From: an uncultured Bacteroidota bacterium
GTDB taxonomy: Bacteria; Bacteroidota; Bacteroidia; B-17B0; Aurantibacillaceae
Reading direction: 5' to 3'
NCBI GenBank assembly: GCA_903834765.1
Contig: CAILKE010000016.1
Location: forward strand, 2,686 to 66,685
DNA length: 64,000 nucleotides
Shown: positions 9,268 to 47,581 of the stretch, one piece after another
Layout of the letters: every line of letters starts with the position of its first letter
Position numbering within the stretch: position 1 is the stretch's first letter
Position numbers and translations under genes: made by a program
The notes under the pieces: model-generated
Seen by the model: only the letters and a program-made list of their open reading frames with translations
What the model was told of the DNA's origin: nothing
Databases searched by the model: none

Positions 9268-9273
9268 CATCTA

Positions 9274-10658: not shown

Positions 10659-10781
10659 ACTCTCAATCCTCTTTTAGTAGTGTAAAATAAACGTTACAAT
10701 AAATTGTCAAGGGTCAATGGAAGTAGGTACTTTAGCTATGAAACGCCTGTTAATAGGCATTAATATAAACTTAAAACAGAA

Positions 10782-13468: not shown

Positions 13469-13469
13469 T

Positions 13470-25416: not shown

Positions 25417-25419
25417 AAA

Positions 25420-26556: not shown

Positions 26557-26557
26557 A

Positions 26558-33000: not shown

Positions 33001-33714
33001 ATGGTTAACTTCGTAACTATGAATTGGGAAAGTAAATACGATGAATACGTTTTAAAGATGTCAGAAGAATATTTTGAAGAGAGATTTGAAATACGTCAGG
33101 ATGTCCCCTTTGAATTTGTTTACAAATACGAAAACATTAGAGAGTTTTTAAATGACAATAAAACAAACTTTTTGAATTTTATAGTATCTGATCCACTATC
33201 AGCCTTTCGAAATCTACAGTCACAATTACCAATTCTAGCAGAGCATTTAATATACTGTGCACATAAAGAGCAATCACTAAGTGAAAAAGACTTCTGTAAA
33301 TGCTTTCTGCGGATATACTTATATGCAGCAAAAGGGAAAACATTGTTTAAGCATTTAATTAGTTATTCAGAATTGGTTGAAATATTTAGTACCTATAATT
33401 TTAAATCTATTATGGATACTGATGAGAAAAAACAATTTGAAAAACTGCAAACAAGTGTGGCATTATTTCGAGGGTCAGCGGGAATTGATTTTGATGAAGC
33501 AAAGAAAGGTATTAGTTGGTCCTTAAATTATGATAGAGCAGAAGAATTTGCTCTGTATGATAGAGATTACTTTAATGCTAATTCTGCCATTGTTATTGAC
33601 GCAACTATCTCAAAGAAAGACATCCTAGTTTTTTCCAATCTACGAGGGGAATATGAAGTTATTATTAATCCTGATGAATTAAGAAATATACGTTTTAGAG
33701 ACCTAGGTCGTTGA
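33001..33714 (+). CDS. Hypothetical protein; weak R-S-E ADP-ribosyltransferase-like motif set
   Basis: 'LFRGS' (R157), 'ISWSLNYDRAEEFA' (S172-x-S174), 'GEYEVIINP' (E217-x-E219). The order fits the ART R/STS/ExE pattern, but the R-to-S spacing is short. Confidence 0.5.
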   Translation: MVNFVTMNWESKYDEYVLKMSEEYFEERFEIRQDVPFEFVYKYENIREFLNDNKTNFLNFIVSDPLSAFRNLQSQLPILAEHLIYCAHKEQSLSEKDFCKCFLRIYLYAAKGKTLFKHLISYSELVEIFSTYNFKSIMDTDEKKQFEKLQTSVALFRGSAGIDFDEAKKGISWSLNYDRAEEFALYDRDYFNANSAIVIDATISKKDILVFSNLRGEYEVIINPDELRNIRFRDLGR

Positions 33715-33808
33715 GCACAGTTAAGTAATTAATACGACAACACTTATTTTTAAATAACTATTGACATTTTACCTAGATTAACTATATTTAATTAAAACAA
33801 TAGATATT

Positions 33809-34576
33809 ATGAAAATTTCAAACGACATAAAAACAGAAATGGATGCATTAATTGCTAATAATATAGGATTTAACGAAATGTACCAAGAGCTCCAATTGAA
33901 GTATACTATTACGGTAGGTGAAATTACTCTAATAGGAGAAAGTCAGGGAACAATCCCTTGTTGGACTTGTAAGATAAACCAAAATGAAATTACGATAGAA
34001 TCTCCGCTAGCAAGCAGAGATATTGAGTCATTTGTTCATGAATTATTGCATGGTATTTTAGACTCAAAAGGCTTTTCTGAAACTAAAATTGTATTAAATT
34101 GGATCAACAAGCTGCCGCACCCTATCCCGTTTTTATTAGGGGAGCCCAATTTACTTGGCCACATTAATAATTCACTGGCACATGAAAAAATGTATCCGTA
34201 TTATGATGCGCATGGGTTTAATCCTGAAAATTTCGTACTTGATTATGCGCTTTGTCCGGTGCAAGATGCCTATATGGATTGTATAAATTCGGATTTTTAC
34301 AACGCTGGATTGCCCAACGATGCAATTGGTGTTTATATCGGTCAATTTATTGCATGTAGATATTGTTTGAACGATACTTTTTTACCGCAGATTAGAGAAT
34401 GTCTGAATACTCTTCATACTATTAATAATGATCTATATGATTTATGTGAAGAATTTTTAGTTGAATGGAGTACTATTCCTGAAAGGCATAATTTAGCACA
34501 TATCATAAGATTTGCCTATAAAGTTCGTGATTGGTATAATACTAATAAAGGCCTTTTTATAAATGGGATTTCGTAA
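33809..34576 (+). CDS. Hypothetical protein with HExxH motif (possible metallopeptidase)
   Basis: 'FVHELLHGILD' is the only recognisable motif. Confidence 0.45.
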   Translation: MKISNDIKTEMDALIANNIGFNEMYQELQLKYTITVGEITLIGESQGTIPCWTCKINQNEITIESPLASRDIESFVHELLHGILDSKGFSETKIVLNWINKLPHPIPFLLGEPNLLGHINNSLAHEKMYPYYDAHGFNPENFVLDYALCPVQDAYMDCINSDFYNAGLPNDAIGVYIGQFIACRYCLNDTFLPQIRECLNTLHTINNDLYDLCEEFLVEWSTIPERHNLAHIIRFAYKVRDWYNTNKGLFINGIS

Positions 34577-34645
34577 ATAATGAAAATTACCCCCATATAA
34601 TAGAACAAAATTTATCAGAGGTATATAAAGTAAAACTTAATACCA

Positions 34646-35971
34646 ATGATAAAATTCCTACCAAAAAACCTAGACTTAAAACATTTATTAGCCGAACACC
34701 CACCAGAGTTCAAATATCATATTGATCACTTTGTACATCTTTGTAGCTTATTGTATGAATTACCAGCAAAGAAGAAAGGTGCTCTAAATGAAGGAGGTTA
34801 TGTTTCTTTAAATGCTCACATGTTAAAGAAAGTAAATAACAATTATAAGAAGTATTTTAATTATTTAATTCAGCATGGTGTAATAGAATGTGATAATTCA
34901 TACATCGTTGGCAAGAAAAGTAAAAGTTACCGCTATGCCCCAAAATACCAGGATATAATACAACCTACTTATATTACTAAGTATACTTTAACTAAAAACT
35001 TAAAAGAAATACACAGGTTTAACAGAGACATGTATGCTAAATATAATTATTTGTATAAATGGTTTGATGATGGGCTATGTGTAGATTTTGAAAAAGCAGA
35101 ACAAAAGCTGATTGAACTATATCAAAAGAATAAAGAAGCAGGAGAGAAGAACGCCCTACATAAACTGAATGTTAATTTAGTAAACCTAATTAAGCTACAA
35201 AAGAAGGATTTCTATTTCACTGTAGATTCAACATCTAAAAGATTACATACCTTACTTACTAAAATAAAAAAGGATTTAAGAGAGTACATTACATTTGATA
35301 ATAAAAAGTTAAGTAATATCGACATACAATGTTCTCAACCAACATTATCATTGTGTTTATTAGAACCATCATTTTATAATACAGAATTAAAGCAGGAGCG
35401 TGTCACTATAAATTCTATAGACCCACAGCTAACAGATAAACTGCCGATACAAGCTATTACTAAATATGTAACAGCTAATCAAGATAAATTTGACAGCTAC
35501 CGTAAATTAGTGTTTGATGATTTATATGTCGGTATGGCTGAGATTTTAAAAAGTAAATCCGTTAATATTGCCACTGACAGAGATAGTTTAAAAGATATGA
35601 TGTATATGGTACTATACTCTAGTAATAAGTTTTTAAACGGCAACCAAGGACTACCTAAACGTATTTTTAAAGAACTGTTTCCTGAAGTGTACGAAGTATT
35701 TAAAATGTATAAATCAGCAGGACAAGAAAACCTACCAATACTACTACAAAAAATTGAAGCTGTATTGATATTAGAAAAGGCCGCTAAAACAATAGCAAAA
35801 GCTCAACCCGGCATGCCACTTTTTACAATCCACGATTCTATAGTCTGCCCGACTGATAAAACTGAATTTTGTAAAAATATTATTGTATCAGAAGCTATTA
35901 AGTATTTAGGTTTTGAGCCCAAACTTAAGATTGATCTGTGGGCTGAACCCACAGAGAAGAAGGGGGGTTAG
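34646..35971 (+). CDS. Compact family-A / T7-RNAP-like polymerase-fold protein (motifs A, B, C present; no exonuclease domain)
   Basis: 'SKRLHT' (cf. TGRLSS). Motif A 'NIDIQCSQPTL' (D226, nt 35321). 'DLYVGMAEIL' (cf. DIHTATA). Motif B 'RDSLKDMMYMVLYSS' (cf. RxxxKxxxxxxxYG). Motif C 'FTIHDSIV' (nt 35831..35839). Confidence 0.55.
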   Translation: MIKFLPKNLDLKHLLAEHPPEFKYHIDHFVHLCSLLYELPAKKKGALNEGGYVSLNAHMLKKVNNNYKKYFNYLIQHGVIECDNSYIVGKKSKSYRYAPKYQDIIQPTYITKYTLTKNLKEIHRFNRDMYAKYNYLYKWFDDGLCVDFEKAEQKLIELYQKNKEAGEKNALHKLNVNLVNLIKLQKKDFYFTVDSTSKRLHTLLTKIKKDLREYITFDNKKLSNIDIQCSQPTLSLCLLEPSFYNTELKQERVTINSIDPQLTDKLPIQAITKYVTANQDKFDSYRKLVFDDLYVGMAEILKSKSVNIATDRDSLKDMMYMVLYSSNKFLNGNQGLPKRIFKELFPEVYEVFKMYKSAGQENLPILLQKIEAVLILEKAAKTIAKAQPGMPLFTIHDSIVCPTDKTEFCKNIIVSEAIKYLGFEPKLKIDLWAEPTEKKGG

Positions 35972-36155
35972 GTGTTCTAAATATAATTTTCGGGGGTCAC
36001 ATGTGTGATACACTCTATTATATAATTTTGGGATTCAACACTGTTTGGTGTTATACCTTTAAAAATTCGTGGAATTCTCTTTTCTTTTCTACACTATGTG
36101 GGTAAATTATAAGGTTTTTAATAATTGCTACAACCCTTATACTAATCCCTAAAAT

Positions 36156-36216
36156 GTTCTCACCTTTTAACTTTTCTCTTGAATGTCCCATTGTTACTGA
36201 GAAGTTAAGGGTGAAA
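36156..36216. terminator. Long imperfect hairpin between convergent genes (probable bidirectional terminator)
   Basis: 'ttctcaccttttaacttttctc' ... 'gagaagttaagggtgaaaa' form imperfect complementary arms, immediately downstream of the PolA stop (36223). Confidence 0.4.
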
Positions 36217-36222
36217 ACATTT

Positions 36223-38124
36223 TTAATGTGCCTCTAACCAATTATCACCATACCCAATATCTACCTTTAGAGGGACTAATAATTCTGCTGCACTTTCCAT
36301 GACTCTTTTAAGCATAGGGATTAGAGTATCTAATTCTTTTTTTGGAACGTCTAATACAATCTCATCATGAACAGATAAAACCATCTTAGCTTTATAACCA
36401 CCGCGTTCTAATTCATTAAACACATTGATCATTGCTTTTTTAATTATATCCGCAGATGTCCCTTGTATAGGAGTATTTACCGCCATGCGTTTAGCTGCTG
36501 TACGTTTAGATTTGTTTTGGGAGTCAATTTCTTTAATGTATCGTCGTCTTCCGAATAATGTAGTACTATAACCGTTAATCGTTGCTAAATAGTACGCCTC
36601 CTCATGGTAATTTCTGACACCTGCAAATCCTTCAAAATAACTATCCATGTATTCTTTCGCTTTCTCAACATCTACCTCTTCTCCAGTTTCATCAGCAATA
36701 CGTTCAGCTAAAGTTTTAGCAGACATAAGATAATTTAAACCAAAGTTGATTGTCTTTGCAACCTTTCGTCTTTTATCATCTTTACCAATTTCTTCTATAG
36801 GTGCACCAAATACTTTAGAAGCAGTAGCAGTATGTATATCTAAGCCAGCTTTAAACGCCTTTATCATATCAGGGTCTTTAGAGTAGTGAGCAATAACACG
36901 AAGCTCAATCTGTGAATAATCAGCAGATACAATAACATGATCTGCATCAGTAGGAATAAATACTTTACGTATTTGTTTTCCAAAACCTTCGTGCTGATGC
37001 GGTATGTTTTGCAGGTTGGGATTAGATGAACTTAAACGTCCAGTAACAACACGCGCTTGTCTAAAATTACTGTGTATTTTATTCGTATCAGGATGAATGT
37101 TATTCGGTAATTTACTTAAGAAACTATTTTTAATTGAAGAAATAGCTTTGTATTTAAGTATTAATGACACTACTGGATGATCATGTTTTAATTTTAGTAA
37201 TGTTTTTTTACTAGTGCTTAATTCACCTGTTTTGGTTTTTATGTCGCTGACTAATTGTAGTTCATCAAACAACACCTCTCGTAAATCCTGATTAGAATTT
37301 ATATTAAACTCAGCACCAACTAAATCAAATATCTGTTGCTGTAATATTTCTAATTCAACATCAGCCTCCATATCAAGAATAAGTAAAGCATCGTAATCAA
37401 TATTGACACCAGTATATTCCATATCTGCTAACACTTTAACTAAAGGCATTTCAATGGTTTCAAATAAAGTGTCAATACCCATTTTACTTAGAATAGGTTC
37501 TAAATGATGTTGAAGTTGTAATGTTTGGTCGGTATCCTCAGAAGCATAAACAGCAGCCTCTTCAATCGAAACTTCTCTCATGGATAGCTGTGTTTTACCT
37601 GTTCCAATTAAATCTGAAATTTCTATTTGCTGGTAGTTCAATAACTCTTTAGATAGTTCCTTTAATCCATGCTTAGCATCACCATCGATTAAATAGTGAG
37701 CAATCATTGTATCAAACAGTTTACCGTTAACAGCTATGTCATATCTGCGTAGAACATTAATATCAAATTTTAAATTATGGCCGGTTTTTGATATAGTTGG
37801 ATTTTCAAAATACGGTTTGTAGGGTAGGAGTAGTTGCTGAGCTTGTGCAGGGTCTTCGGGAACAGGTAAGTAGTATGATTCGTTAGCATTAAATGCAAAT
37901 GAAATACCAACTAATTGTAATGAATGAATGGTTAATGCAGAACCTGATTCGGTTGCACCAGTTTCAGTATCGAATGTGAAACTGGTGCAGTTTTGAAGTT
38001 CACTAAGTAATTGCTGTTTTATTTCCTCAGAATCTACCACCATATAAGAGTAGTTTACATCGGCAAGTGTTTTATATACATCAGTTACATTAGGGGTCAA
38101 TCGCATTATCCTCTTCCTGAACAC
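36223..38124 (-). CDS. Family A DNA polymerase (3'-5' exonuclease + polymerase domains, phage/plasmid type, no 5' nuclease)
   Basis: Exo motifs 'FDTETG', 'GHNLKFD', 'YASEDT'. Pol motifs 'TGRLSSSNPNLQNIP', 'DYSQIELRV', 'RRKVAKTINFGLNYLMS', 'SVHDEIVLD'. The start may be the internal M7 (38106). Confidence 0.92.
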   Translation of the reverse strand: MFRKRIMRLTPNVTDVYKTLADVNYSYMVVDSEEIKQQLLSELQNCTSFTFDTETGATESGSALTIHSLQLVGISFAFNANESYYLPVPEDPAQAQQLLLPYKPYFENPTISKTGHNLKFDINVLRRYDIAVNGKLFDTMIAHYLIDGDAKHGLKELSKELLNYQQIEISDLIGTGKTQLSMREVSIEEAAVYASEDTDQTLQLQHHLEPILSKMGIDTLFETIEMPLVKVLADMEYTGVNIDYDALLILDMEADVELEILQQQIFDLVGAEFNINSNQDLREVLFDELQLVSDIKTKTGELSTSKKTLLKLKHDHPVVSLILKYKAISSIKNSFLSKLPNNIHPDTNKIHSNFRQARVVTGRLSSSNPNLQNIPHQHEGFGKQIRKVFIPTDADHVIVSADYSQIELRVIAHYSKDPDMIKAFKAGLDIHTATASKVFGAPIEEIGKDDKRRKVAKTINFGLNYLMSAKTLAERIADETGEEVDVEKAKEYMDSYFEGFAGVRNYHEEAYYLATINGYSTTLFGRRRYIKEIDSQNKSKRTAAKRMAVNTPIQGTSADIIKKAMINVFNELERGGYKAKMVLSVHDEIVLDVPKKELDTLIPMLKRVMESAAELLVPLKVDIGYGDNWLEAH

Positions 38125-39331
38125 TTGATAAATCTACATGTATCACACGTTTGGTATTAGCTGGCTTTTCTTCATAAGCAATACCACGGTACTTTAAATA
38201 TTTGTGAACCTTCATCATAAATTTATTTTGAGACGGATAATATTTTTGTAAACCATAATGGCTTTTTACAAAATCATCATACAAATCTTTTTTATTCCAC
38301 TTCTCAGCACCTGATAGTACCTTCTCATCTAAAAAGTCTTTAAGGTCACTACCACCTAATTCACCTATAAGTTTACGAAGAGCTGCATTAATTTGTGGCG
38401 GTTGTATAATTCCTTTTTTTAAATACAACTGAGTGCAATTAATAAAAAAATTAAACATGTGATTAAAATCTTCGTTATTCCATTCTTGAAAAAACTCACG
38501 TCCGAACTCCTGCATTGGTTTTAGAGCAGAGCCATAGTATGACGAAACTTCAAACTCAACCTTACGTCTTTCTGAACTATTGCCTGCAATACATTTAACA
38601 GGGAAGTTAGATGAAATGATAATTTTAGGTGTACGTTCCTTTGGAATTTTAAACGCTGCTTTGTTTTTTTGGTTAACCTCTAAACCAGCAGATACAATAC
38701 TAAAACAAAATTCAAAAGATGTGTGTCTGTCTAGATCATCAATAAACATTATTTCGGTATCTAAATCCAAACGTTGAAACCTGAAGTCCCCACCTGGTTT
38801 AAAATCCTTGCCGTCAATATCTATCATGTTTCTAATTAACCCTAGAGCCAAACATATCGTTGTTTTTCCTGTGCCGCCTTGGGCCTCTTCGGTTCCATTA
38901 ATAGTTTCATCAAGGAAGCATGGTACTACAGTTAAAGATGGCGACCAGTAGCGGTGTAATATATAGCCGATAATAGTTTGTAAGGCTTCAAATCGTTTTT
39001 CATCTTTATTACATACTCTAAAGCAGAACTCTTTAAAATCGCCTAATGATACGCCAACGCCAAGTAAATTAATATCGTAAGGTTTAACTTGTTTCATCCA
39101 AATAAAACCGTCCAGTTCTTTATAATCCATTAAGTTTATGCCATCAGCAGTAACTTTTACAACACCATTTTTAAAATAAAAAAAGCTTTCTTTTTTAGTA
39201 TCATAATGAAAAGATATTTCTTTAATACCAAGTAATCTAAGCTTAGGTACATTGATGTATTTATCAATACCTCTAACTAGTACGTTTATTAAATGATTCT
39301 TCTCGAAACCATAAATTGAAAAATCATCCAC
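38090..39331 (-). CDS. P-loop NTPase, D5/P4-like (SF3) replicative helicase candidate; same frame as the upstream ORF across a single TGA
   Basis: 'FFYFKNGVVKVTADG' (D5_N-like), Walker A 'QGGTGKTT', Walker B 'IMFIDDLD'. The track start is GTG. 36 sense codons lie open upstream, back to the TGA at 39440..39442. Confidence 0.65.
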   Translation of the reverse strand: MDDFSIYGFEKNHLINVLVRGIDKYINVPKLRLLGIKEISFHYDTKKESFFYFKNGVVKVTADGINLMDYKELDGFIWMKQVKPYDINLLGVGVSLGDFKEFCFRVCNKDEKRFEALQTIIGYILHRYWSPSLTVVPCFLDETINGTEEAQGGTGKTTICLALGLIRNMIDIDGKDFKPGGDFRFQRLDLDTEIMFIDDLDRHTSFEFCFSIVSAGLEVNQKNKAAFKIPKERTPKIIISSNFPVKCIAGNSSERRKVEFEVSSYYGSALKPMQEFGREFFQEWNNEDFNHMFNFFINCTQLYLKKGIIQPPQINAALRKLIGELGGSDLKDFLDEKVLSGAEKWNKKDLYDDFVKSHYGLQKYYPSQNKFMMKVHKYLKYRGIAYEEKPANTKRVIHVDLSSVQEEDNAIDP

Positions 39332-39439
39332 CTCATTTTGAATGAACTGATATACATGATCAGTAATATCAGTGATGTCAACGTCTTGAACTTTTTTGCC
39401 ATGAATTTTAACAAGTCGTTTTTTATCTTCAATTTTCAG

Positions 39440-39748
39440 TCAGCAAAAACCTTTGTCACGTAAATGAATTAGTAATCCTTCATGGTGTATTGTAATTTCC
39501 TTTTTTGAGATTTGCCAAAAATCACCGAAAACGGTTTTTGATTCAGGTTCTATGACTTCAATTGTAGTAGGTGTAGTTTGATCTGTTGGTTCCGTTGTTG
39601 TTTCTGATTCAGGAATTATTACATCAGCAGTTGCTTGTGTAGTTAGATCTACTGGTTCATTTGTTATTCCTGATTCAGGTGTTACAGCATAATCAAATGT
39701 TGGTTTAGTTTGGTCATCTGACCCTGTTGAGTTTTTTGGAGTTTCCAT
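39440..39748 (-). CDS. Thr/Glu/Pro-rich ORF, probably the N-terminal part of the helicase gene
   Basis: 102 aa ending 'LIHLRDKGFC*'. In frame with 38090..39331. Confidence 0.4.
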   Translation of the reverse strand: METPKNSTGSDDQTKPTFDYAVTPESGITNEPVDLTTQATADVIIPESETTTEPTDQTTPTTIEVIEPESKTVFGDFWQISKKEITIHHEGLLIHLRDKGFC

Positions 39749-39787
39749 TTTAAATTGTTTTTTAAATTAATTAATAAGGTAAATGTT

Positions 39788-39807
39788 GGGCAGGCTATTG
39801 CCTGCCC
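39788..39807 (-). terminator. GC-rich hairpin downstream of the DUF3127-like gene
   Basis: gggcaggc-tatt-gcctgccc (8-bp stem), conspicuous in AT-rich DNA. The T-tract is weak. Confidence 0.4.
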
Positions 39808-39816
39808 AAAGGCACT

Positions 39817-40155
39817 TTACACTTTTTCTGTTAAGGTTTCTTTTGTGTTTTCTACTTTAGTAACTACTAAATCAGTAACTACTATTTCAATACTGGACGT
39901 TCTTAATACATTAAAGCATTTAGTTTGACCATCTTTCGCTGTGTAAGATTTACCGTGAATTTCAAAAGTTACTTCTACGATACTATTTAATGGTATCGCA
40001 TCTAGTTTTTTAATATCATTGCCGAGTATTTCAAATGATAAATTTGGATAAGCACCGGGGCTCAGTCGAGATACTATGAATTCTTTTTTGGTCAATTTGC
40101 TACTGAATTCTTGAAATGCTCCTACATGAAATAGGATTCCTTTAATTTTAAACAT
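39817..40155 (-). CDS. DUF3127-like OB-fold protein (putative ssDNA-binding)
   Basis: 112 aa. 'MFKIKGILFHVGAFQEFSSKLTKKEFIV...LSFEILGNDIKKLD...VEVTFEIHGKSY' matches the layout of DUF3127 proteins in Bacteroidota phages and elements. Confidence 0.55.
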   Translation of the reverse strand: MFKIKGILFHVGAFQEFSSKLTKKEFIVSRLSPGAYPNLSFEILGNDIKKLDAIPLNSIVEVTFEIHGKSYTAKDGQTKCFNVLRTSSIEIVVTDLVVTKVENTKETLTEKV

Positions 40156-40198
40156 GTTGTTTTGTTTTTTAATTGTTAGACATTACTTTAATTTATAT

Positions 40199-40221
40199 GC
40201 GCCTGCTTTCAGTGCAGGCGC
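40199..40221 (-). terminator. GC-rich hairpin downstream of 40234..40929
   Basis: gcgcctgc-tttcagt-gcaggcgc (8-bp stem). Confidence 0.4.
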
Positions 40222-40233
40222 ATAATGGTTACA

Positions 40234-40929
40234 TTATCCGATAAGGAGTTTTGCCACCTGTAACTTTAATACTTTACCTTTTGCAGGTAATGCTATTGCT
40301 TTTTCAGCCTCTGTTTTAGGGAAATAAAGTGCTCGACGTGAACCTTTACTCTCACCTTTAAGTACATAACCAACTAGGTGTTTACCGTTTACTAAAACAA
40401 GGGTTGCTTGGTCTCTGTGCTTAGTGCCATAAAACCTAAAACCAGAAAAACCTAATTCAACCATAGTTGAACCTATTAATCCACCTTCTGAAGCTTTGTC
40501 GCTATTACGTCCTATCGGAAGTATAATAAAGGTTCCATTTTTTGGCTGGTATGTTTTAACAGCTCTCGTTAAATCCGTATTAGCCACGAACCTTGAGCCA
40601 CTTCCTCTGCCTGCTGAATCAACAGTTTCAAAAACAACATTTTCGTTAATGAAGTCGAACTTTGCAGCATCAAGATAAGGCATTTCAATGCCACCATCGG
40701 TTTGATGATTAAGCGGTATGTTACGTACAGGTAATTCCTCTGAAATAGGATTTATCTGATTTGTAACATTTGAAGCTACACTTACCTCCTGCACGTTATT
40801 AGTTAAAGCAGTACTGTCCGTTGCAGGGCTTTCAGGTGCTTTGTTTTCTACTGGTGTGTTATTTTCACTGCCAGTACTTTGGTTTTCGTCTACTACTGAT
40901 GAGTTGACCTCTTTTGTTTGTTCTTCCAT
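40234..40929 (-). CDS. Hypothetical protein (disordered N-terminus, structured C-terminus)
   Basis: 231-aa ORF within the replication module; no recognisable motif. Confidence 0.5.
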   Translation of the reverse strand: MEEQTKEVNSSVVDENQSTGSENNTPVENKAPESPATDSTALTNNVQEVSVASNVTNQINPISEELPVRNIPLNHQTDGGIEMPYLDAAKFDFINENVVFETVDSAGRGSGSRFVANTDLTRAVKTYQPKNGTFIILPIGRNSDKASEGGLIGSTMVELGFSGFRFYGTKHRDQATLVLVNGKHLVGYVLKGESKGSRRALYFPKTEAEKAIALPAKGKVLKLQVAKLLIG

Positions 40930-41019
40930 GATGGATTTTTTTAGTTATTATTTTATTTAATTTTCATTCAACGAATTGAATAGGTGGCGATTTATTTTTT
41001 AGCATCGTTAGGGCAATAT

Positions 41020-41718
41020 TTAAATGTTGGTTATTGATTTGCGTTTAAGCATCCATAGATTTTGCTGACAGTGTTCAGGGAAGAAAGGTGACATAAAACC
41101 TGAAAGCAGTTCAGGGCTATAGTATGGAGTTAACCCTTCATACATCTTTATCTGCCAATCATTCATAACAGGTTTAAAATCTTCAGTTGAACCTAATACA
41201 CCGAACTTATTTACTACTGAGAAGTAGGTTGTAATAAACTTATCTATGTCCTGAGCCGTTATTAAATCAGTAGATTTCGGAAGTAGTATGTAATAAGTAG
41301 CATCAGGGTTACCGCACATATAGAAGTTCTGCATGTAATAGTAAAGGTTGATTCTACTTATTGTATCAGGAACATTTAATGCAACAACTGTGTCTGCACC
41401 AATATTTGAGAAGGTGCTGTAATCATCACTTCCTGATGAAAGATCTGCTACTATGAATGTCGCCCAAGGCAGTTGTTTCCATTTGCTACTGTTAGCTTCA
41501 ATAATAGATGGGTTCGTGTCCATACCGATATAACTACCGATTGCAGTTCTATTCCGATATTCTAATTCTAAAAGGCCACCATCGCCGCATCCAAAATCAC
41601 ATACGCGTTCACCACCTCTTGCATTTTGTAAAATTGGTGACCATTGTAGGTATTTAATGAAATTTAAGATATTGTAAGCGTGATTGCTTAATAATTGTTT
41701 TTGTTCAGTTGTCTCCAT
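41020..41718 (-). CDS. Class I SAM-dependent methyltransferase
   Basis: Motif I 'VCDFGCGDGGLLE' and post-I 'YIGMD'. No DPPY/NPPF motif seen, so the substrate is unknown. Confidence 0.7.
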   Translation of the reverse strand: METTEQKQLLSNHAYNILNFIKYLQWSPILQNARGGERVCDFGCGDGGLLELEYRNRTAIGSYIGMDTNPSIIEANSSKWKQLPWATFIVADLSSGSDDYSTFSNIGADTVVALNVPDTISRINLYYYMQNFYMCGNPDATYYILLPKSTDLITAQDIDKFITTYFSVVNKFGVLGSTEDFKPVMNDWQIKMYEGLTPYYSPELLSGFMSPFFPEHCQQNLWMLKRKSITNI

Positions 41719-41870
41719 GTTGTTTTTTAAATTTTAATATTATTAGCTATAGGATTTCCCCCTACAAATTTTTCAATAATATTTCTGGAATTTTAAACGG
41801 TAGTGCTACAGAAGTACTACGGAAGTTTCTGCTACATTTTCTTTATTACCTTTGTGATAAAAAAAAACAC

Positions 41871-42953
41871 ATGACTAATTTTAGCCCAAACACACTATTA
41901 ACACAAATAAGTAACTATAAAAACGAGTTGTTTAAGAATAGCTGTAAGGAATTATTTCGTATTAATGATCTGTACGATAATGTAGATGGTACTACGAAAA
42001 TTGTAGGAAATAATTTTAATTATTTTATTCCTTTTTCTTTAGAGTTACAGGACTACGTTACAAATTATACAAATCAAGGCAATGAAGAGTTAAACTCACT
42101 ATTATTTGCTAACCTTAAATTTCTGAAACTAGAAATAGATAGAACTTGCACTGATGAACATATAACGCAACTAATAACTAACTTAAAAACAGATTTACTA
42201 AATAACGATGGACATTATATTGATATAGTCGATGAAGAAGGGGAGGTTCACACTTATATAGTCGACGAGGATGGGTATACATATTATACAGATCAAAGTC
42301 ATGAAGAATACTGTATCCAAATACTATTTAAAATTGCGTTAAAAAATATACGAGAAATGTTAGGAAATTACAGTAGTTACTTTGATGATAACTATTCGCT
42401 ACTACCGACAATAAAAGCAGAATCAGTATTTCCACCATTAGCTAATCTTAGTGTTAATCAACTTACATTTAATTGTGCTATCTCTATACCACATAAACTC
42501 TACTGGGACGAAGAAATAATAAAATTTGAAAGTTTCTTCAGTAAAAAAAATATAGTTCAAAATATAACACTTATGAATGGTGAAGTAGACAGAGTTAAGA
42601 TTTTGTCAATTTTAAAAGAAGTGTTTTTAGTTGGAAATTTTGGTGGGATGTTAAAAAATGATGACAATACTGGTTCTGTAGACAATAGACCTTTTATGAT
42701 TTCAGAGGGATTAAAATGGAATGGTGGAGCACCTTTATTTGCAAATACATTTTCAGAATTAATAAAATTTGAAAATAGAAAGTCAACAAGTAACACTACC
42801 GTGTTTTGTAATTTTAGTAAAACAGGAGTTCGTGATACAATTGTAAAAGTTTTGTATTTCCTATTTTATATTGATAAACAAACGGGAGAAAGGATTGCAC
42901 CTTCATATCTGAAACAAGCATTTAAGGATTATGAAGCAGATCAAGGTTTGTAA
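41871..42953 (+). CDS. Hypothetical protein
   Basis: I prefer the ATG at 41871 ('MTNFSPNTLL'). The track's N-terminal 54 aa look like translated promoter DNA. Followed by a clean terminator. Confidence 0.55.
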   Translation: MTNFSPNTLLTQISNYKNELFKNSCKELFRINDLYDNVDGTTKIVGNNFNYFIPFSLELQDYVTNYTNQGNEELNSLLFANLKFLKLEIDRTCTDEHITQLITNLKTDLLNNDGHYIDIVDEEGEVHTYIVDEDGYTYYTDQSHEEYCIQILFKIALKNIREMLGNYSSYFDDNYSLLPTIKAESVFPPLANLSVNQLTFNCAISIPHKLYWDEEIIKFESFFSKKNIVQNITLMNGEVDRVKILSILKEVFLVGNFGGMLKNDDNTGSVDNRPFMISEGLKWNGGAPLFANTFSELIKFENRKSTSNTTVFCNFSKTGVRDTIVKVLYFLFYIDKQTGERIAPSYLKQAFKDYEADQGL

Positions 42954-43004
42954 TATTTATTTTGAAAAATCAGAATTACCCTAACCGCTGTCATACAACT
43001 TCCG

Positions 43005-43034
43005 AAGCGCTACTGTATAGGTAGCGCTTTTTTT
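43005..43034 (+). terminator. Rho-independent terminator
   Basis: aagcgctac-tgtatag-gtagcgctt followed by ttttt. Confidence 0.7.
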
Positions 43035-43052
43035 ATGCTATAATTTTATCCT

Positions 43053-43967
43053 ATGAATAATAACATGGATATAGCTAAAGGGCATCAGATGCCAATTCAG
43101 CCGGAGATTACCGCCGAACAAAATCAGGTAATGGAAATAACTCCAGTCGAAGGCCTCCCAATTGTAGACGTTTTAGAAGAATGTAAAAAAAGGATTCGGG
43201 ATATGAATATATCGCAATTACTTTTAAGTCTGAAAGAGAAACAAGTTTGTTTTTACTCCAATGGTAGTTGGGTTATTGCAAATGAGGAATTATTAATTGA
43301 CCTTATTGCTGATACAATTGTTGATCCAAAAGTAATTTCAGTTTTATGTAATGTTATTCCTTCAGTAATTGAATTTAGTGATTTAAACGGGGAGCTAGTT
43401 TTTAAACTAGATAAAAATTTAAATGATATTGAGAATATTGTTATGGATATTGTTAATGAATTTGATTTTGATACAACCGCATTTGAGCTAAGAGGACATC
43501 GAATAGATTTTGGTTTGAATAAAACTGAAAGTTTCACGATAAAAGAAGATTTAATAATCGCTGCAAAAAGCACACTATATGAATTGTTTTGTTCTGAAAA
43601 ACTATGGTGTAATCAGGTTGTTAAAACTTTTGATATTATTAAAACTGGCATAGTAGATAGAGGTCATTTCATTGCCCAAAGAGATATTAATAAAATTGAA
43701 TTGTTGTTTGCTTTTACAGATTTAAGCGCTGATGATGCAAATGATATTGAATCTATTCGTGTAGAATATAATAAAAAAGAAATTGGAGATTGGAAATGTA
43801 CCAATTACATTTTAGCACTTGAAGATATTCAATGTTATGTTGCAAATGGTAGATACTCAAATATTCAGGATTGTATAAGGAATAGCCATTTTCAAAATTG
43901 TAACATTGAGGATCAAGAACAACTGAATGATATGGCTAGTTTGTATTTATATAAGCCTGAACAATAA
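43053..43967 (+). CDS. Hypothetical protein
   Basis: 304-aa ORF; no motif. Confidence 0.5.
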   Translation: MNNNMDIAKGHQMPIQPEITAEQNQVMEITPVEGLPIVDVLEECKKRIRDMNISQLLLSLKEKQVCFYSNGSWVIANEELLIDLIADTIVDPKVISVLCNVIPSVIEFSDLNGELVFKLDKNLNDIENIVMDIVNEFDFDTTAFELRGHRIDFGLNKTESFTIKEDLIIAAKSTLYELFCSEKLWCNQVVKTFDIIKTGIVDRGHFIAQRDINKIELLFAFTDLSADDANDIESIRVEYNKKEIGDWKCTNYILALEDIQCYVANGRYSNIQDCIRNSHFQNCNIEDQEQLNDMASLYLYKPEQ

Positions 43968-44009
43968 ATATCAAATTCATAATCCTATTATTTTATACAG
44001 CAACAGAAG

Positions 44010-44357
44010 GTGTTTTTCAACGACTGTTGCTATTGTATAATTTATTCCAATCAAACAAAAAGCATAAGATTGCTTAACGATAATAACATAAACAACGTCA
44101 TTGATAAACTAAATGCTCTACAGGCATCAGTGAATATTATTGACGAAAAGTTACAGAAGCTTCAAAAAGAGAGGATCACTTTTGGTGAGTGGGTTTCTGA
44201 AAAAGAAGTTATTGCTGTAACAGGTTTGTCACGTGCTACATTACTAAAACTGCGAAATACAGGTAAAGTAAGTAGCAGTACAATTTCCGGCAAACAGCTT
44301 TATTATCGCTTAAGTGACTTTAAAAAATTATTAGATAAAAACGAATTAGAAATGTAA
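44010..44357 (+). CDS. Excisionase-like helix-turn-helix protein
   Basis: 'EWVSEKEVIAVTGLSRATLLKLRNTGKVSSSTISGKQLYYRLSDFKKLL' is the MerR/excisionase-type HTH usually found just upstream of Bacteroidota integrases. The true start is probably downstream of the GTG at 44010. Confidence 0.6.
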   Translation: MFFNDCCYCIIYSNQTKSIRLLNDNNINNVIDKLNALQASVNIIDEKLQKLQKERITFGEWVSEKEVIAVTGLSRATLLKLRNTGKVSSSTISGKQLYYRLSDFKKLLDKNELEM

Positions 44358-44358
44358 C

Positions 44359-45627
44359 ATGGAATTAATACAAAGCATACCAATGTCAATAAAGTTTACT
44401 TTGGAGAAATCTAGAGATAAAAGTAAAGATGTGTACTGGGTTTATGCTCGGATAATTTGTAAAAGAGAACGAGTATTAATCTCTTTAAAAATGGAAGCAC
44501 AAATAGATGACTGGGATTTCGCAAACCATCAATTTGTTCAATCTAAAAAAATAAACCTAGTTAAAAATAATAAGTTGCGTTCAATTGCTGATGAGTTAAC
44601 GCAAATCTACCTTGACTTAAAACGTACAGGTTCACCAATTTCATCTAAAGTAATTAAGAATATCTACAATGGAGATATAACACAATCATCTGATGTTGAG
44701 TTTATGACGTTTTATAACAAACACTTAGAAGAACTCAAGCTAAAAACAAATGAATATACAGATGGGGTTATAGGGCATTATGTTAAAACACAAACTCATT
44801 TAGTGAGATTCTTAAAGCTGAACGGCCTCTCAAAAATTAAAATGAATGAATTAAGCAGAAAATTTATAGAGCGTTTTGAGAACTATTTATTGAGTACACC
44901 TAATGCACACACCGGTAGACCTATGAATTCTAATACATCTGCTACATACATTAGAAAATTAAGAGCTACTATAAATGCTGCATATAAAATGGAAGTGATA
45001 CCAACTAATCCGTTTGTTAGTTTCAAAATGCATCCAATTAAGTCTGCAAATAAAACTGTATTATCACAAGAAGAACTTGATGTCCTAAATAGTCATGCTT
45101 TAGATGATAATTTTGCTTTAGATAAAGCAAGAAAAATGTTTTTATTTTGTTGTGCAACTGGCTTACGTCACTCCGATGCTACGCAACTTCATAATGACAT
45201 GATTAGAAAAGATGAGGATGGTGTTTATTGGATTTCTATGAGTCAACAAAAAACAGGTGACAATGTTGAAATACCACTTTCTAACATAGCTGAAAAAATT
45301 TACCATGAGTTTGAAGCACACCGCATAGCAACTGGATTTGCCTTACCAATGCTGAGCAATCAAAAATCTAATGATGCATTAAAAGCTATATCTAAAAAAG
45401 TAGAAATAAATAAAAACATAAGCTGGCACGTTGCGAGGCATACATTCGCTACCAATAGTTTGAATCATGGTGTTGATATAGCAGCAGTAAGTAGTTTAAT
45501 GGGTCATCGTACAATTAAAACAACTCAAATCTATGGTAAGGTAACACGTAAGCGTAAAGCTGATGTAATTAAGTTTTTAAATGCAAAAACAGCGGTAGCA
45601 AAACCTAAAAAGAAAAATGGAAAGTAG
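44359..45627 (+). CDS. int: Tyrosine-type site-specific integrase (Arm-binding N-terminus + SAM-like + catalytic domain)
   Basis: 'GLRHSDA' (R), 'WHVARHTFAT' (HxxR), 'LMGHRTIKTTQIYGKV' (H...Y). Confidence 0.92.
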   Translation: MELIQSIPMSIKFTLEKSRDKSKDVYWVYARIICKRERVLISLKMEAQIDDWDFANHQFVQSKKINLVKNNKLRSIADELTQIYLDLKRTGSPISSKVIKNIYNGDITQSSDVEFMTFYNKHLEELKLKTNEYTDGVIGHYVKTQTHLVRFLKLNGLSKIKMNELSRKFIERFENYLLSTPNAHTGRPMNSNTSATYIRKLRATINAAYKMEVIPTNPFVSFKMHPIKSANKTVLSQEELDVLNSHALDDNFALDKARKMFLFCCATGLRHSDATQLHNDMIRKDEDGVYWISMSQQKTGDNVEIPLSNIAEKIYHEFEAHRIATGFALPMLSNQKSNDALKAISKKVEINKNISWHVARHTFATNSLNHGVDIAAVSSLMGHRTIKTTQIYGKVTRKRKADVIKFLNAKTAVAKPKKKNGK

Positions 45628-45758: not shown

Positions 45759-47126
45759 TTAATTTGAACCTTTACTCTTGCAATATTTATTTAAAGCATC
45801 AGTTGCAACTTTAAGTCCTTTTTCCGAAGCCTCTTTCCAATCCTTACAAGCACCATTATCCTTTAAATTGTATTTAGAAAAACCCCTATAATACAAAGCA
45901 GTTACTGAAAATTGAGAGTTAGATTCTATTGCTTTAGTTAGATCAGGTAAGGCTTCTTGATATTTCCCCAAATAACCAAATGCCAATCCCCTTTGTAAAT
46001 ATGTCCAATAATTTTCTTTGTTTAATTCAATAGCTTTAGTATAATCATCAATTGCCCCTTGATAATCTTTCGATCCACATTTAAGCAATCCTCTGTTTGC
46101 AAAAGCAAGGTCATTTTTTTTGTCATTCTCAATTACATAGTTGTAATCAGTCATTGCCAGTGATAACTCTTTCTTTGCCTGATAAACATTCCCACGTTCC
46201 ATTATGGCCCTAATGTTTTTTGAGTCATTACCAATAACTTTATTTAAATCGCTTAAAGCGTCATCTAATTGGTTTATTTTCAGTTCGAGAACTGCTCTGT
46301 TTATTAAATACTCAACATTGTTAGGTTGTAATTTGATGGCTTTAGTGTAGTCTTTTAGAGCAGACGCATCATTACCTAATTCTGCACTTGTTGCTGCACG
46401 ACCATTCAAAGCCTCATCATTATTTTGATCTAATTCAATCGCCTTATTGTAATCCTCAATAGATGCTTCAAGTCTTGCCATTAATCCTTTGCAATGCCCC
46501 CTTTGATAATAAGCTTCGGAAAATGTTGGGTTCAAAGAAATTGATTGACTAAAATAGTCAATTGCTTCATCGAATCGTTCACCTGTTTTTAGTCTCATTC
46601 CTTCTTTAAAGTAAGAGGTTGCTTGCGAGTTGTCATACTCTTTCATAACCTTTTCTTTTTTTAAACGATACTCTTCTAGTTGTTTATCATTAACGCTTAT
46701 TTCCGTAATATAAAAACTATACAAACAACCATTTAAAAACACTTTTGCTCCTGGCAAAAAAACAATTTCATCGTTCTTAGAGAGAGTAATCTGAAATATG
46801 AATTTATCTGTAATGTCAGCCTTTTTGTATTCGCTTAAATAAACAGGAAAAACCTTAATGTTTGGTCTTTCTCCCTCACAAACTCCAATCAATTTAAGAT
46901 CTTTAATAAGTTGTGCTGAGCAAAGAGAACCCATTTGATTTGGATTAAAAGAAAATTCGCACTTCGTGCTTTTTCCGGTTTTTAAAATCCAAACTTTACC
47001 ACTTGGAACAGTTTGATAATAATCTGATGATAATAGTATTTCGGTTTGAGACCACGCTTTTGTGAAAACAAACAAAATAAGAATTCCGCAGAATTTTACA
47101 ATATTATTTCTATAGATAGTAATCAT
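45759..47126 (-). CDS. TPR-repeat protein with N-terminal signal/anchor
   Basis: 'ILILFVFTKAWSQ' leader. At least 7 TPR units ('AYYQRGHCK', 'ALNGRAATS', 'YLINRAVLE', 'AFANRGLLK', 'TYLQRGLAF', ...). Confidence 0.8.
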   Translation of the reverse strand: MITIYRNNIVKFCGILILFVFTKAWSQTEILLSSDYYQTVPSGKVWILKTGKSTKCEFSFNPNQMGSLCSAQLIKDLKLIGVCEGERPNIKVFPVYLSEYKKADITDKFIFQITLSKNDEIVFLPGAKVFLNGCLYSFYITEISVNDKQLEEYRLKKEKVMKEYDNSQATSYFKEGMRLKTGERFDEAIDYFSQSISLNPTFSEAYYQRGHCKGLMARLEASIEDYNKAIELDQNNDEALNGRAATSAELGNDASALKDYTKAIKLQPNNVEYLINRAVLELKINQLDDALSDLNKVIGNDSKNIRAIMERGNVYQAKKELSLAMTDYNYVIENDKKNDLAFANRGLLKCGSKDYQGAIDDYTKAIELNKENYWTYLQRGLAFGYLGKYQEALPDLTKAIESNSQFSVTALYYRGFSKYNLKDNGACKDWKEASEKGLKVATDALNKYCKSKGSN

Positions 47127-47370: not shown

Positions 47371-47410
47371 ATTACTGCAACATTTTCGATTACTGCAACA
47401 TTACTGCAAC
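47371..47410 (+). promoter_or_regulatory. Three direct copies of ATTACTGCAAC (putative arm-type integrase sites), island right end
   Basis: Copies at 47371..47381, 47389..47399 and 47400..47410, in the same orientation as the 4370..4391 pair. Confidence 0.45.
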
Positions 47411-47441
47411 AATTTTAAGCAGAAATAAGCGGAAGTAAGCA

Positions 47442-47523
47442 GAAAAAAGCGTTAATCTATTGATTATCAATAAAAAATCCCCTTCATTTAGTATGAAGGG
47501 GATTAGTTGGAGGTCCCGTCCAG
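47442..47523. repeat. Right copy of island-flanking direct repeat (overlaps the tRNA-Cys 3' end)
   Basis: Aligns with 4231..4311. Identical 14-nt core at 47510..47523. Confidence 0.75.
47476..47504 (-). terminator. Terminator hairpin following tRNA-Cys (island-borne copy)
   Basis: aatccccttcat-ttagt-atgaaggggatt. On the minus strand it is followed by a T run. Confidence 0.6.
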
Positions 47524-47581
47524 GTTCGAACTGGAGTAGCAGCTTTTGCAGAGCTGAGCCTAACCACTCGGCCACAGGACC
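47508..47581 (-). tRNA. tRNA-Cys: tRNA-Cys (anticodon GCA), CCA encoded
   Basis: Reverse complement GGTCCTGTGGCCGAGTGGTTAGGCTCAGCTCTGCAAAAGCTGCTACTCCAGTTCGAACCTGGACGGGACCTCCA. 7-bp acceptor stem; anticodon stem CAGCT/AGCTG with loop CTGCAAA; T-arm TCCAG-TTCGAAC-CTGGA. Confidence 0.92.

Follow-up and report, generated by a model that had tools for sequence, protein, structure and literature searches.

A tRNA-adjacent island from an uncultured Bacteroidota bacterium that combines a TV-Pol-type mini-polymerase with a putative PolA, helicase and DUF3127 replication module

The island and its integration site

The window, by which is meant the whole stretch of 64,000 nucleotides that was analysed, contains an island of 43.2 kb (approximately positions 4312–47509) with the hallmarks of a tRNA-targeting tyrosine-integrase element. 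Direct repeats of a tRNA 3' end are found at both ends of the island and the integrase gene is located on the side of the intact tRNA. The repeats share a 14-bp core, GAGGTCCCGTCCAG, which corresponds to the 3' end of tRNA-Cys, lies at 4298–4311 in attL, and is present in only two copies in the whole genome. An intact tRNA-Cys(GCA) at 47508–47581 is contained within attR. The arm-type repeats are internal to both ends. An 18-mer of the left set is present only at the two island ends, and the left repeat is also found upstream of the tRNA in a relative, L178, in which the right set is kept as well. The features of the island are presented in Table 1.

Table 1. Features of the island, in window coordinates
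Feature	Coordinates	Strand	Evidence and remarks
attL	4227..4319	.	imperfect direct repeat of 47438-47531; terminator-like hairpin and 14-bp core
Left arm-type repeats	4370..4396	+	CTGCAACATTACTGCAAC; candidate integrase arm-binding sites
Variable cargo: small ORFs, HNH_5 protein (5628-7013), T9SS-sorted protein (7978-9267)	4480..11456	+	Pfam
Type I R-M operon (hsdM, GHKL ATPase, hsdS, hsdR) with Mokosh type I pair MkoA/MkoB inside	11858..24130	+	Pfam, PADLOC
PLD nuclease and SNF2 helicase module	24844..31613	+	Pfam; PADLOC candidate PDC-M27A/B/C
Small serine recombinase (resolvase), 233 aa	32180..32881	-	Pfam Resolvase 1.8e-21
Two genes, 237 and 255 aa	33001..34576	+	no family match (Pfam, PHROGs, NCBIfam)
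TV-Pol-type mini family-A-like polymerase (predicted), 441 aa	34646..35971	+	conserved residues, AF2 model, Foldseek
Exo+ family A DNA polymerase (PolA)	36223..38124	-	Pfam DNA_pol_A 1e-135, DNA_pol_A_exo1 2e-29
SF3/D5-like helicase	38090..39748	-	phrog_28855 8.6e-58; Walker A/B; ORF part 38090-39331
DUF3127 SSB-like (OB-fold) protein	39817..40155	-	Pfam 31.9 bits, above cut-off; phrog_4932 SSB
Conserved 231-aa protein	40234..40929	-	first gene of replication operon
Class I SAM-dependent methyltransferase	41020..41718	-	GCGDGG SAM motif; Pfam matches sub-threshold only
Two genes upstream of xis-int, 360 and 304 aa	41871..43967	+	no family match (Pfam, PHROGs, NCBIfam)
HTH_17 excisionase-like protein (Xis)	44010..44357	+	HTH_17; excisionase PHROGs
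Tyrosine integrase (Int)	44359..45627	+	Pfam Arm-DNA-bind_5, SAM_5, catalytic domain
TPR protein	45759..47126	-	between int and attR
Right arm-type repeats	47371..47450	+	ATTACTGCAAC x3 and TAAGCAGAAA x3.5
attR	47438..47581	-	hairpin and 14-bp core at 47510-47523

The backbone of this tRNA-integrating island occupies window positions 32180–47531. At its left edge, the small resolvase probably serves for multimer resolution, and a perfect 18+18 palindrome beside its gene (32930–32967) may be the resolvase site. The resolvase is 90% identical in the relative L173; at this position the relatives carry either a resolvase or a 195-aa tyrosine recombinase. At the right edge, orthologues of the integrase adjoin a tRNA in L113, L115, L178 and L181. 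The TPR gene is specific to the window copy and missing from the relatives, with L181 having a PDDEXK_9 gene at that place. The range of the first-pass annotation did not include the att sites or the genes for the resolvase and the TPR protein, yet these are part of the element.

A comparison with 53 genomes of the same genus never produced the response regulator gene (3486–4160) followed by tRNA-Cys. Same-genus genomes carry tRNA-Cys beside a homologue of the gene at 55187, without the island; the left flank of the window is not their tRNA neighbour. The genes that neighbour the response regulator in the relatives map to other contigs of the source genome. Thus, the locus has been rearranged and no clean attB can be demonstrated. 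tRNA-Cys ancestrally had another neighbour than the present left flank, so the island may have been brought in together with flanking DNA instead of inserting by its own integrase.

Defence and other cargo

The first-pass annotation had described a large defence cargo, and this description held: a type I restriction-modification (R-M) operon, a Mokosh type I pair (PADLOC: MkoA 8e-150, MkoB 3.5e-13) and a PDC-M27 candidate were identified. The leftmost cargo (4480–11456) gave no PHROG structural matches and is not conserved in the backbone relatives. The cargo to the left of the backbone differs in each relative and includes SIR2 with DUF87, SduA, MksE, AAA_15/21 with HNH, and Mrr. The two genes that follow the resolvase gene are not conserved in the relatives either and lie outside the conserved backbone.

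Polymerases of the predicted replication module

The island encodes two polymerases that differ in size and composition. The smaller is matched by no Pfam or NCBIfam model, and a Pfam domain was found in none of its 83 homologues. The AF2 model of this protein (pLDDT = 91.6) presents a family A polymerase fold with an extra N-terminal domain. In a Foldseek search against the PDB, all matches were family A polymerases with a probability of 1.0 and modest TM scores (0.28–0.41), while a comparison with BFVD gave TM scores of 0.74–0.79 to phage proteins of approximately 400 aa. PDB searches with sequence profiles made from the mini-polymerase and helicase alignments produced no match.

Among 46 aligned sequences of the mini-polymerase, R199, D226, K316 and H396-D397 are invariant and R312 nearly so. 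In the AF2 model, R199 is placed between strands 191–193 and 200–202, the position of the β-hairpin arginine of TV-Pols. The two metal-binding aspartates of an RRM-like palm are D226 (strand 222–227) and D397, the latter in an HDS motif (strands 393–402). The fingers motif RxxxK is formed by R312 and K316 in helix 312–324. The protein has no exonuclease domain and is of minimal size, as is the family A core of TV-Pols. From these features and the modelled fold, the gene at 34646–35971 is assigned to the TV-Pol type as described in PMC2579912, and its product is predicted to be a primase-polymerase.

The larger polymerase, PolA, is Klenow-like and its 5' nuclease domain is absent. The proofreading exonuclease motifs I, II and III are intact (DTET52, NLKFD117, YASED193), as are the polymerase motifs A, B and C (DYSQIELR402, RRKVAKTINFGLNY452, VHDE585). 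The PolA proteins of the window and six island relatives are monophyletic and apart from 79 chromosomal PolI sequences (SH-aLRT 100). From this phylogeny, PolA is assigned to an island-specific lineage. PolA also matches the PADLOC model RTasPolA (1e-38); this match is generic PolA homology.

Helicase, SSB-like protein and neighbouring genes

The helicase presents Walker motifs AQGGTGKT and IMFIDD, and its DUF5906 score in Pfam is 20 bits, below the cut-off of 27.6. The AF2 model of the helicase is poor (mean pLDDT = 60), with residues 309–418, most of the ATPase core, below 50. The top Foldseek matches obtained from this poor model were all SF3 primase-helicases, such as ASFV PrimPol and SaPI5 Rep, which suggests an SF3 fold. 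Homologues of 781–793 aa carry AEP or Zn-ribbon primase domains, whereas the window helicase is without a primase domain. Its reading frame is interrupted by an in-frame TGA (39440–39442) at a conserved tryptophan codon; the closest relative, which is 88% identical, has TGG at the site. Recoding of TGA as tryptophan was considered and rejected, since translation table 11 leaves all other ORFs intact and TGG stands at the site in the closest relative. A replacement helicase paralogue was not found elsewhere in the genome.

The replication operon follows the order 231-aa gene, DUF3127, helicase and PolA, and this order is kept in the relatives. The 231-aa protein is itself kept in L113, L115, L017, L021, L178 and L181, and searches of Pfam, PHROGs and NCBIfam gave no family match for it. 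The methyltransferase is conserved in the relatives. Upstream of xis-int, the 360-aa gene is conserved and the 304-aa gene is variable. Homologue searches returned seven sequences for the 231-aa protein and three for the 360-aa protein, the latter family being too small to be modelled reliably, and NCBIfam supplied no name for ten backbone or neighbouring proteins. A search for repeats and palindromes identified no iteron-like origin.

The first-pass annotation had proposed a self-replication module at this locus. Its exo+ PolA, its mini-polymerase, the DUF3127-like OB-fold protein, the SAM methyltransferase, the excisionase-like HTH protein and the tyrosine integrase were all recovered by the motif, profile and model evidence given above and in Table 1. 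Every gene named for the module is where it had been placed; the module is, however, not complete, as the helicase gene is interrupted by a stop codon.

Relatives of the backbone and the search for virion and transfer genes

The backbone is shared by at least six relatives from metagenomes or genomes (L113, L115, L178, L181/L173, G109 and, in part, L021), where it adjoins tRNA-Cys or tRNA-Arg. A ten-gene order may be considered in terms of three blocks: the TV-Pol gene; then PolA, helicase, DUF3127, the 231-aa gene and the methyltransferase; and lastly the 360-aa and 304-aa positions, Xis and Int. The 19-kb contig of L178 shows no circular-contig signature and ends in the tRNA, which indicates an integrated copy. 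L180 carries an AEP primase, a D5 helicase, ThyA and MazG in place of the PolA module, an exchange that fits a role in replication for this slot. L021 has the PolA/helicase/DUF3127 operon with no TV-Pol nearby, and distant TV-Pol islands exist without PolA. The parts are thus separable, and how labour is divided between them is uncertain.

Profile searches for capsid, terminase, portal, tail and lysis genes gave none (Pfam, approximately 45 island ORFs; PHROGs, approximately 30 hypothetical ORFs), in agreement with what the first-pass annotation had read from the sequence. The same is true of its statement on conjugation and mobilisation, since relaxase, coupling protein, T4SS and Mob families were not matched (Pfam, all island ORFs; NCBIfam, ten proteins). 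Searches of Pfam and PHROGs for terS, cpm, ppi-like, head-connector and helper-interference genes were likewise negative. Among 2.9 million IMG/VR contigs, only distant PolA proteins (at most 32% identity) and no relative of the helicase were found, and matches in phage databases were distant only. Structural genes were not found in the backbone relatives. The earlier description of an integrative island, as opposed to a prophage or an ICE, is upheld, and the backbone recurs in independent relatives that lack structural genes. Its suggestion of a phage-satellite-like element is disfavoured, given that packaging and capsid-redirection genes and IMG/VR relatives were not found.

Comparison with known systems

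Two known systems resemble parts of the island. TV-Pol elements were predicted to be replicative, with TV-Pol acting as a primase-polymerase, and Bacteroidetes members were listed (Iyer, Abhiman and Aravind 2008, Biol Direct 3:39; PMC2579912). As in those elements, the 441-aa protein has a minimal family-A-like core with the β-hairpin arginine, two palm aspartates, the RxxxK of the fingers and an extra N-terminal domain, and its gene lies beside genes for a resolvase of the gamma-delta type and an integrase of the lambda type, among many R-M and defence genes. According to that study, TV-Pols are never found linked to polymerases that bear a nuclease (PMC2579912). The fixed ten-gene backbone of the island, beside a tRNA att site, differs from the elements of that study in that it additionally encodes a complete exo+ PolA, an SF3-like helicase of its own, the DUF3127 SSB-like protein and a methyltransferase, a combination that the study does not describe.

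Among systems that have been studied, the closest analogue is CcPol-MP-Cch2, the PolA-SSB-helicase module of SCCmec-type elements (Bebel et al. 2020, PMC7581432; Rice 2023, PMC10061031), of which all published cases are from Bacillota; the likeness is one of gene content, with sequence kinship compared at the level of family A only. In both, a single operon on a recombinase-bearing, non-viral and non-conjugative island encodes a polymerase of family A together with a small SSB of the OB fold and an SF3-like helicase, and R-M or defence cargo is frequent. The gene order differs, being SSB-helicase-Pol here and Pol-SSB-helicase in SCC. For recombination, the island has a tyrosine integrase at a tRNA and a small 233-aa resolvase, in contrast to SCC-type islands, in which the gene for a large serine recombinase acting at rlmH or ssrA lies downstream of the module. 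The island also has a second, TV-Pol-type polymerase.

Other elements are less similar. SaPI/PICI islands share the integrase, Xis, a putative self-loading SF3 replication helicase (SaPI5 Rep is among the best structural matches) and the lack of capsid genes; however, the present island is approximately three times larger, has its own DNA polymerases and is without packaging or helper-interference genes and virome relatives. Pipolins and casposons are likewise integrative elements that encode a DNA polymerase, which in some of them can prime, and they sometimes bear defence cargo, but their polymerase is of family B and not family A, casposons use Cas1, and terminal inverted repeats are lacking in the island. 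The first-pass annotation drew no connection from the element to TV-Pol elements or to SCC-type modules, both of which had already been described.

Proposed mechanism and alternative explanations

From the gene content, we infer that the island replicates autonomously after excision. Int and Xis would excise the island as a circle, and the SF3-like helicase, itself without a primase domain, would open and unwind the DNA. Priming would fall to the TV-Pol-type mini-polymerase, and PolA together with DUF3127 may also prime, in the manner of CcPol-MP in SCCmec. Elongation would be the task of the proofreading PolA, and DUF3127 would coat single-stranded DNA. The small resolvase would separate multimers and Int would reintegrate the circle. 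Replication may raise the copy number and the cargo dosage, or it may rescue the element for transfer. Taken jointly with this mechanism, we consider it fairly probable that 32180–47531 represents the shared backbone of Bacteroidota islands which insert at tRNA genes, exchange their defence cargo and form a family that has received little attention.

Two alternatives would tie the element to phages. A satellite that excises and replicates on helper infection and is packaged in helper capsids, like PICI, P4 or PLE, would account for the integrase and Xis, the element's own replication initiator/helicase, the tRNA insertion, the absence of structural genes and the SaPI5 primase-helicase among the best PDB matches of the helicase model. 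Such a satellite appears unlikely, since at 43 kb the island is far larger than known satellites, genes for terS, capsid-size redirection, head connectors and helper interference were not detected by Pfam or PHROGs, and neither the PolA lineage nor the helicase has relatives among the viral contigs of IMG/VR. A degraded prophage, with replication and integration modules left after the loss of structural genes, would agree with PHROG matches for PolA, the SSB and phrogs of unassigned function, and with Bacteroidota phages commonly encoding DUF3127, SF3 helicases and polymerases of family A. Yet the backbone recurs in at least six independent relatives which lack structural genes and keep the att-proximal architecture intact, phage records and IMG/VR hold no close relatives, and the island PolA proteins form their own clade; a prophage origin is therefore highly improbable.

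The remaining alternatives concern the role of the module. It was raised for PolA-SSB modules that they serve in defence (Rice 2023, PMC10061031), and PolA, DUF3127 and helicase, with or without TV-Pol, could accordingly be anti-phage cargo and not the replication machinery of the island. The module does reside in a defence-rich island and PolA matches RTasPolA. We give this explanation little weight, as the module is invariant beside Xis and Int where recognised defence genes vary, the RTasPolA match is generic, and the slot in L180 holds replication-type genes. We judge equally improbable an integrative mobilisable element that would transfer by means of the conjugation genes of an ICE in the same cell, using an oriT or relaxase that escaped recognition, with the polymerase module making the complementary strand once a single strand has entered. 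ICEs and mobilisable elements are common in Bacteroidota, the 360-aa and 304-aa proteins upstream of xis-int are without a family match, and second-strand synthesis after entry of single-stranded DNA is one proposed role of the SCC primase (PMC10061031); nevertheless, neither Pfam on any ORF nor NCBIfam on the ten proteins gave a relaxase, T4CP or Mob match.

State of the window copy and implications

Based on the nonsense codon in the helicase gene and the rearranged locus, the window copy is probably replication-defective. It was probably disabled recently and is probably fixed in the chromosome, with a defence cargo that would still serve the host.

For the family as a whole, autonomous replication remains the preferred explanation. 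A wider proposal is offered tentatively and with some doubt, namely that Bacteroidota harbour a class of capsid-less, conjugation-less replicative islands in which TV-Pol, PolA with its proofreading activity, the SF3-like helicase and DUF3127 as SSB form a minimal replisome and which amplify on excision or phage attack, raising the dosage of the defence cargo. Islands of this kind would represent the PolA-based equivalent of pipolins and SCC elements, and with them a PolA-SSB-type replication system would be known for the first time from a phylum other than Bacillota.

To our knowledge, TV-Pol has never been studied biochemically in this form. The Bacteroidota family provides an independent and clearly bounded system for understanding why SCCmec-like islands carry a polymerase, an SSB and a helicase. 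With it, one may test TV-Pols as primases, an SSB partner that enables family A priming, and whether replication serves transfer or defence dosage. The family is also a recurrent carrier of Mokosh, R-M, Shedu, SIR2 and PDC-M27 systems in environmental Bacteroidota.

Replication genes and cargo of the island

Profile searches bear out most of the gene inventory that the first-pass annotation had drawn up. The family A DNA polymerase (PolA), described there as exonuclease-positive, matches Pfam DNA_pol_A (1e-135) and exo1 (2e-29) and retains the Exo I-III motifs as well as motifs A, B and C; no 5' nuclease domain was found in it. The DUF3127 OB-fold protein scores 31.9 bits in Pfam, above the cut-off, the excisionase-like protein matches HTH_17, and the tyrosine integrase carries Arm-DNA-bind_5 and SAM_5 domains. 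The SAM methyltransferase is recognized by a GCGDGG SAM-binding motif, its Pfam matches all being sub-threshold. The large defence cargo is likewise recovered, since PADLOC identifies MkoA/MkoB (Mokosh type I) within a type I R-M operon, plus PDC-M27A/B/C. As had been claimed, no virion or transfer genes are seen: capsid, portal, terminase, tail, lysis, relaxase, coupling-protein and T4SS genes were all without a match when every island ORF of at least 60 aa was searched against Pfam, about 30 hypotheticals against PHROGs and ten against NCBIfam. Membership tests placed the element outside prophages, ICE/IMEs and the known satellites; the earlier reading had likewise argued against a prophage or an ICE.

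Features of the island and its flanks (window positions)
Feature	Position	Remark
Response regulator	3486-4160	two-component system, left flank
Left junction	4160-4230
Direct repeat, left copy	4227-4319	imperfect, 78-84%
Element	~4312-47509	43.2 kb
T9SS-sorted protein	7978-9267	Por_Secre_tail
Palindrome	32930-32967	perfect, 18+18 nt
Mini-polymerase	34646-35971	441 aa
PolA	36223-38124
Helicase ORF	38090-39331
TGA codon	39440-39442
Helicase ORF	39440-39748
Tandem repeat	39534-39665	66 nt, 2 copies, 73%
Hairpin	39786-39809	G+C-rich
Direct repeat, right copy	47438-47531	imperfect, 78-84%
tRNA-Cys(GCA)	47508-47581	minus strand
tRNA upstream region	47581-47677	97 nt
Laminin_G_3/T9SS genes	47986-51209	two, adjacent
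Shared 216-nt 3' end	47987-48202; 49030-49245	85% identical
Ancestral tRNA-Cys position	54981-55183	no tRNA
tRNA-aligning stretch	~55031-55100	~70 nt
Gene next to ancestral position	55187-56332

The mini-polymerase

None of the 83 homologues of the mini-polymerase has a Pfam domain. Residues R199, D226, K316 (with R312) and H396-D397 are invariant in the family. The AF2 model is confident (pLDDT = 91.6), and a Foldseek search against the PDB identified family A polymerases only (probability 1.0, TM 0.28-0.41). In BFVD, the model matches phage proteins of ~400 aa (TM 0.74-0.79), one of which is annotated as a 'putative DNA polymerase I'. Iyer, Abhiman and Aravind predicted in 2008 that TV-Pol is a primase-polymerase of replicative mobile elements, some of them in Bacteroidetes (PMC2579912). 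As then described, it has an extra N-terminal domain, resolvase and lambda-integrase neighbours, and four synapomorphies: a beta-hairpin Arg, two palm Asp, a fingers RxxxK and a bi-helical thumb (PMC2579912). All four are observed in the mini-polymerase, together with an extra N-terminal domain, and its resolvase and integrase neighbours agree as well. Judged by these defining residues and by the predicted fold, the mini-polymerase is a TV-Pol.

The helicase and its stop codon

The helicase matches DUF5906 weakly (20 bits) and phrog_28855 strongly, and has Walker A and B motifs. Its AF2 model is mediocre (pLDDT = 60); the top PDB matches are all SF3 primase-helicases (ASFV PrimPol, SaPI5 Rep). 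Homologues of 781-793 aa from same-family genomes have N-terminal primase domains, either BT4734-like_N with PriCT_1 or a Zn-ribbon with DUF6371, which are missing from the island helicase.

The inventory needs one important correction: in this copy, the helicase is split by a TGA into two ORFs that share one frame. In four relatives, the TGA position is a conserved Trp within the motif GFCW, and the closest element (L181/L182, 88% nucleotide identity) has TGG there. Family members with a naturally intact helicase thus exist, the L181/L173 element being an example. Recoding of TGA was rejected because the remaining genes all read normally under table 11; thus, the TGA stems either from a nonsense point mutation or from an error in the assembly. 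With the helicase interrupted and no second helicase, TV-Pol or island-type PolA copy elsewhere in the genome, the window copy of the island is probably replication-defective, unless read-through suffices.

The tandem repeat codes for an N-terminal, low-complexity helicase tail rich in Thr, Pro and Glu; the tail is similar and slightly longer in L181 and absent from more distant relatives. A strong hairpin, TTGGGCAGGC AATA GCCTGCCCAA, separates the stop codon of DUF3127 from the start of the helicase gene, where it could function as an attenuator or as a site of processing within the replication operon. The helicase and PolA genes overlap by 35 nt in the window. In the related genome G109 (L016 15634-17989), the frame holding PolA stays open for 784 codons and reaches the contig end within the C-terminal part of the helicase; the two genes may be fused there or may simply share a frame.

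A conserved backbone with variable cargo

At the right end of the island, TV-Pol (+) is followed by PolA, helicase, DUF3127, a 231-270-aa protein and a ~237-aa methyltransferase (-), then by one or two unknowns, HTH_17 and a 422-423-aa integrase (+). This order is shared by L113 (a 391-kb JGI contig), L115 (Bacteroidetes RIFCSPLOWO2_12_FULL_35_15), L178, L181 with L173, and G109; a Vicingaceae chromosome (L021) has the PolA operon only. Immediately after the integrase is a tRNA, tRNA-Cys in L113 and L181 and tRNA-Arg in L115, and the L178 contig ends in a partial tRNA uncalled by ARAGORN. To the left of TV-Pol lies the gene of a small recombinase, which is a Ser resolvase in some relatives and a 195-aa Tyr recombinase in others; farther out, the cargo is unrelated from one relative to the next (SIR2+DUF87 and Shedu; MksE; AAA_15/21+HNH; an Mrr-type nuclease). 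The R-M/Mokosh/PDC-M27 genes of the window occupy the same place. Beside these defence genes, the T9SS-sorted protein represents surface-protein cargo; the G109 island encodes a distant homologue of it (26%), and comparable genes are found in further TV-Pol islands (L171).

The variant island L180 (10001-19026) encodes a TV-Pol 70% identical to that of the window. Where the others have the PolA/helicase/DUF3127 operon, it has an AEP primase (BT4734-like_N), a D5_N/DUF5906 helicase, thymidylate synthase (ThyA) and MazG, after which come HTH_17 and an integrase. Such a swap of replication modules fits a replication role for the PolA-operon slot. TV-Pol islands further off are without PolA. When the seven island PolAs were placed in a tree with 79 chromosomal Bacteroidota PolI, that of the same genome included, they formed a single clade (SH-aLRT 100) on a long branch apart from the others; the genome's own PolI is 42.7% identical to the island PolA. 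A search of IMG/VR identified no relative of the island PolA lineage or of the helicase, and phage-database matches are distant.

Proposed mechanism and comparison with known systems

We infer the function of the island from its observed architecture, which is most economically read as a five-step scheme. A circle would be excised by Int and Xis and unwound by the helicase, itself lacking a primase domain. Priming would fall to TV-Pol, possibly aided or paralleled by the PolA/DUF3127 pair in the manner of CcPol-MP, the SCCmec primase (PMC7581432, PMC10061031). The proofreading PolA would then elongate while DUF3127 covers ssDNA, and multimers would be resolved by the small resolvase. The palindrome, CTTAACACAGCTAAGTCA / TGACTTAGCTGTGTTAAG, adjoins the serine resolvase gene in the intergenic region between divergent genes and may serve as a res site or as an operator. 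No replication origin was found. Replication might help the element to survive once excised, make its transfer more efficient or raise the dosage of its cargo.

In its working, the element would resemble the TV-Pol elements of the 2008 prediction (PMC2579912) and SCC-type islands, which have a PolA-SSB-helicase operon. It differs from the SCC module (CcPol-MP-Cch2) in gene order, in the type of recombinase and in phylum, and is therefore not a member of that module as defined. A description of the Bacteroidota backbone was not found in the searchable literature. That it represents a PolA-based replicative defence-island class is a tentative proposal, to which we give somewhat less than even weight.

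Insertion site and locus rearrangement

The window has a G+C content of ~30% and encodes several T9SS-sorted proteins, which identifies the host as a member of the Bacteroidota. It contains a single tRNA gene, with the integrase at the tRNA-proximal end of the element. Each copy of the direct repeat has a terminator-like hairpin and a perfect 14-mer, GAGGTCCCGTCCAG, that corresponds to the tRNA-Cys 3' end and has two sites in the whole 3.6-Mb genome, both at island ends. Genome-wide, the 18-mer CTGCAACATTACTGCAAC occurs only immediately inside each end, as expected of putative arm-type integrase sites around an attP core; these arm repeats are kept in L178. The limits of the element therefore follow from core and arm repeats at both ends.

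In about 28 same-genus genomes, tRNA-Cys directly adjoins the homologue of gene 55187-56332. At this ancestral position, the window has a stretch that aligns to the relatives' tRNA with low identity only, within intergenic DNA that is ~80-90% conserved. After this stretch, the tRNA upstream region occurs once more, at 79% identity to the copy at 47581-47677. The functional tRNA-Cys, with its own upstream copy, is at the island end, 7.4 kb away, and the gene at the ancestral position appears to have been replaced or to have decayed. On the left, the response regulator homologue in four same-genus genomes is followed by homologues of C35 (2368->1) and C43, two other contigs of the window's genome, and not by tRNA-Cys, which is 240-380 kb distant from that locus. 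This order argues that the left junction is a rearrangement breakpoint. The nearly identical L181 element is at the canonical tRNA-Cys locus. Given the position of the tRNA, the left flank and the location of L181, the island and both att flanks may have entered, or been moved, within a larger segment. Beyond the tRNA, the two Laminin_G_3/T9SS genes share their 3' ends, and in relatives only the second has orthologues at the locus.
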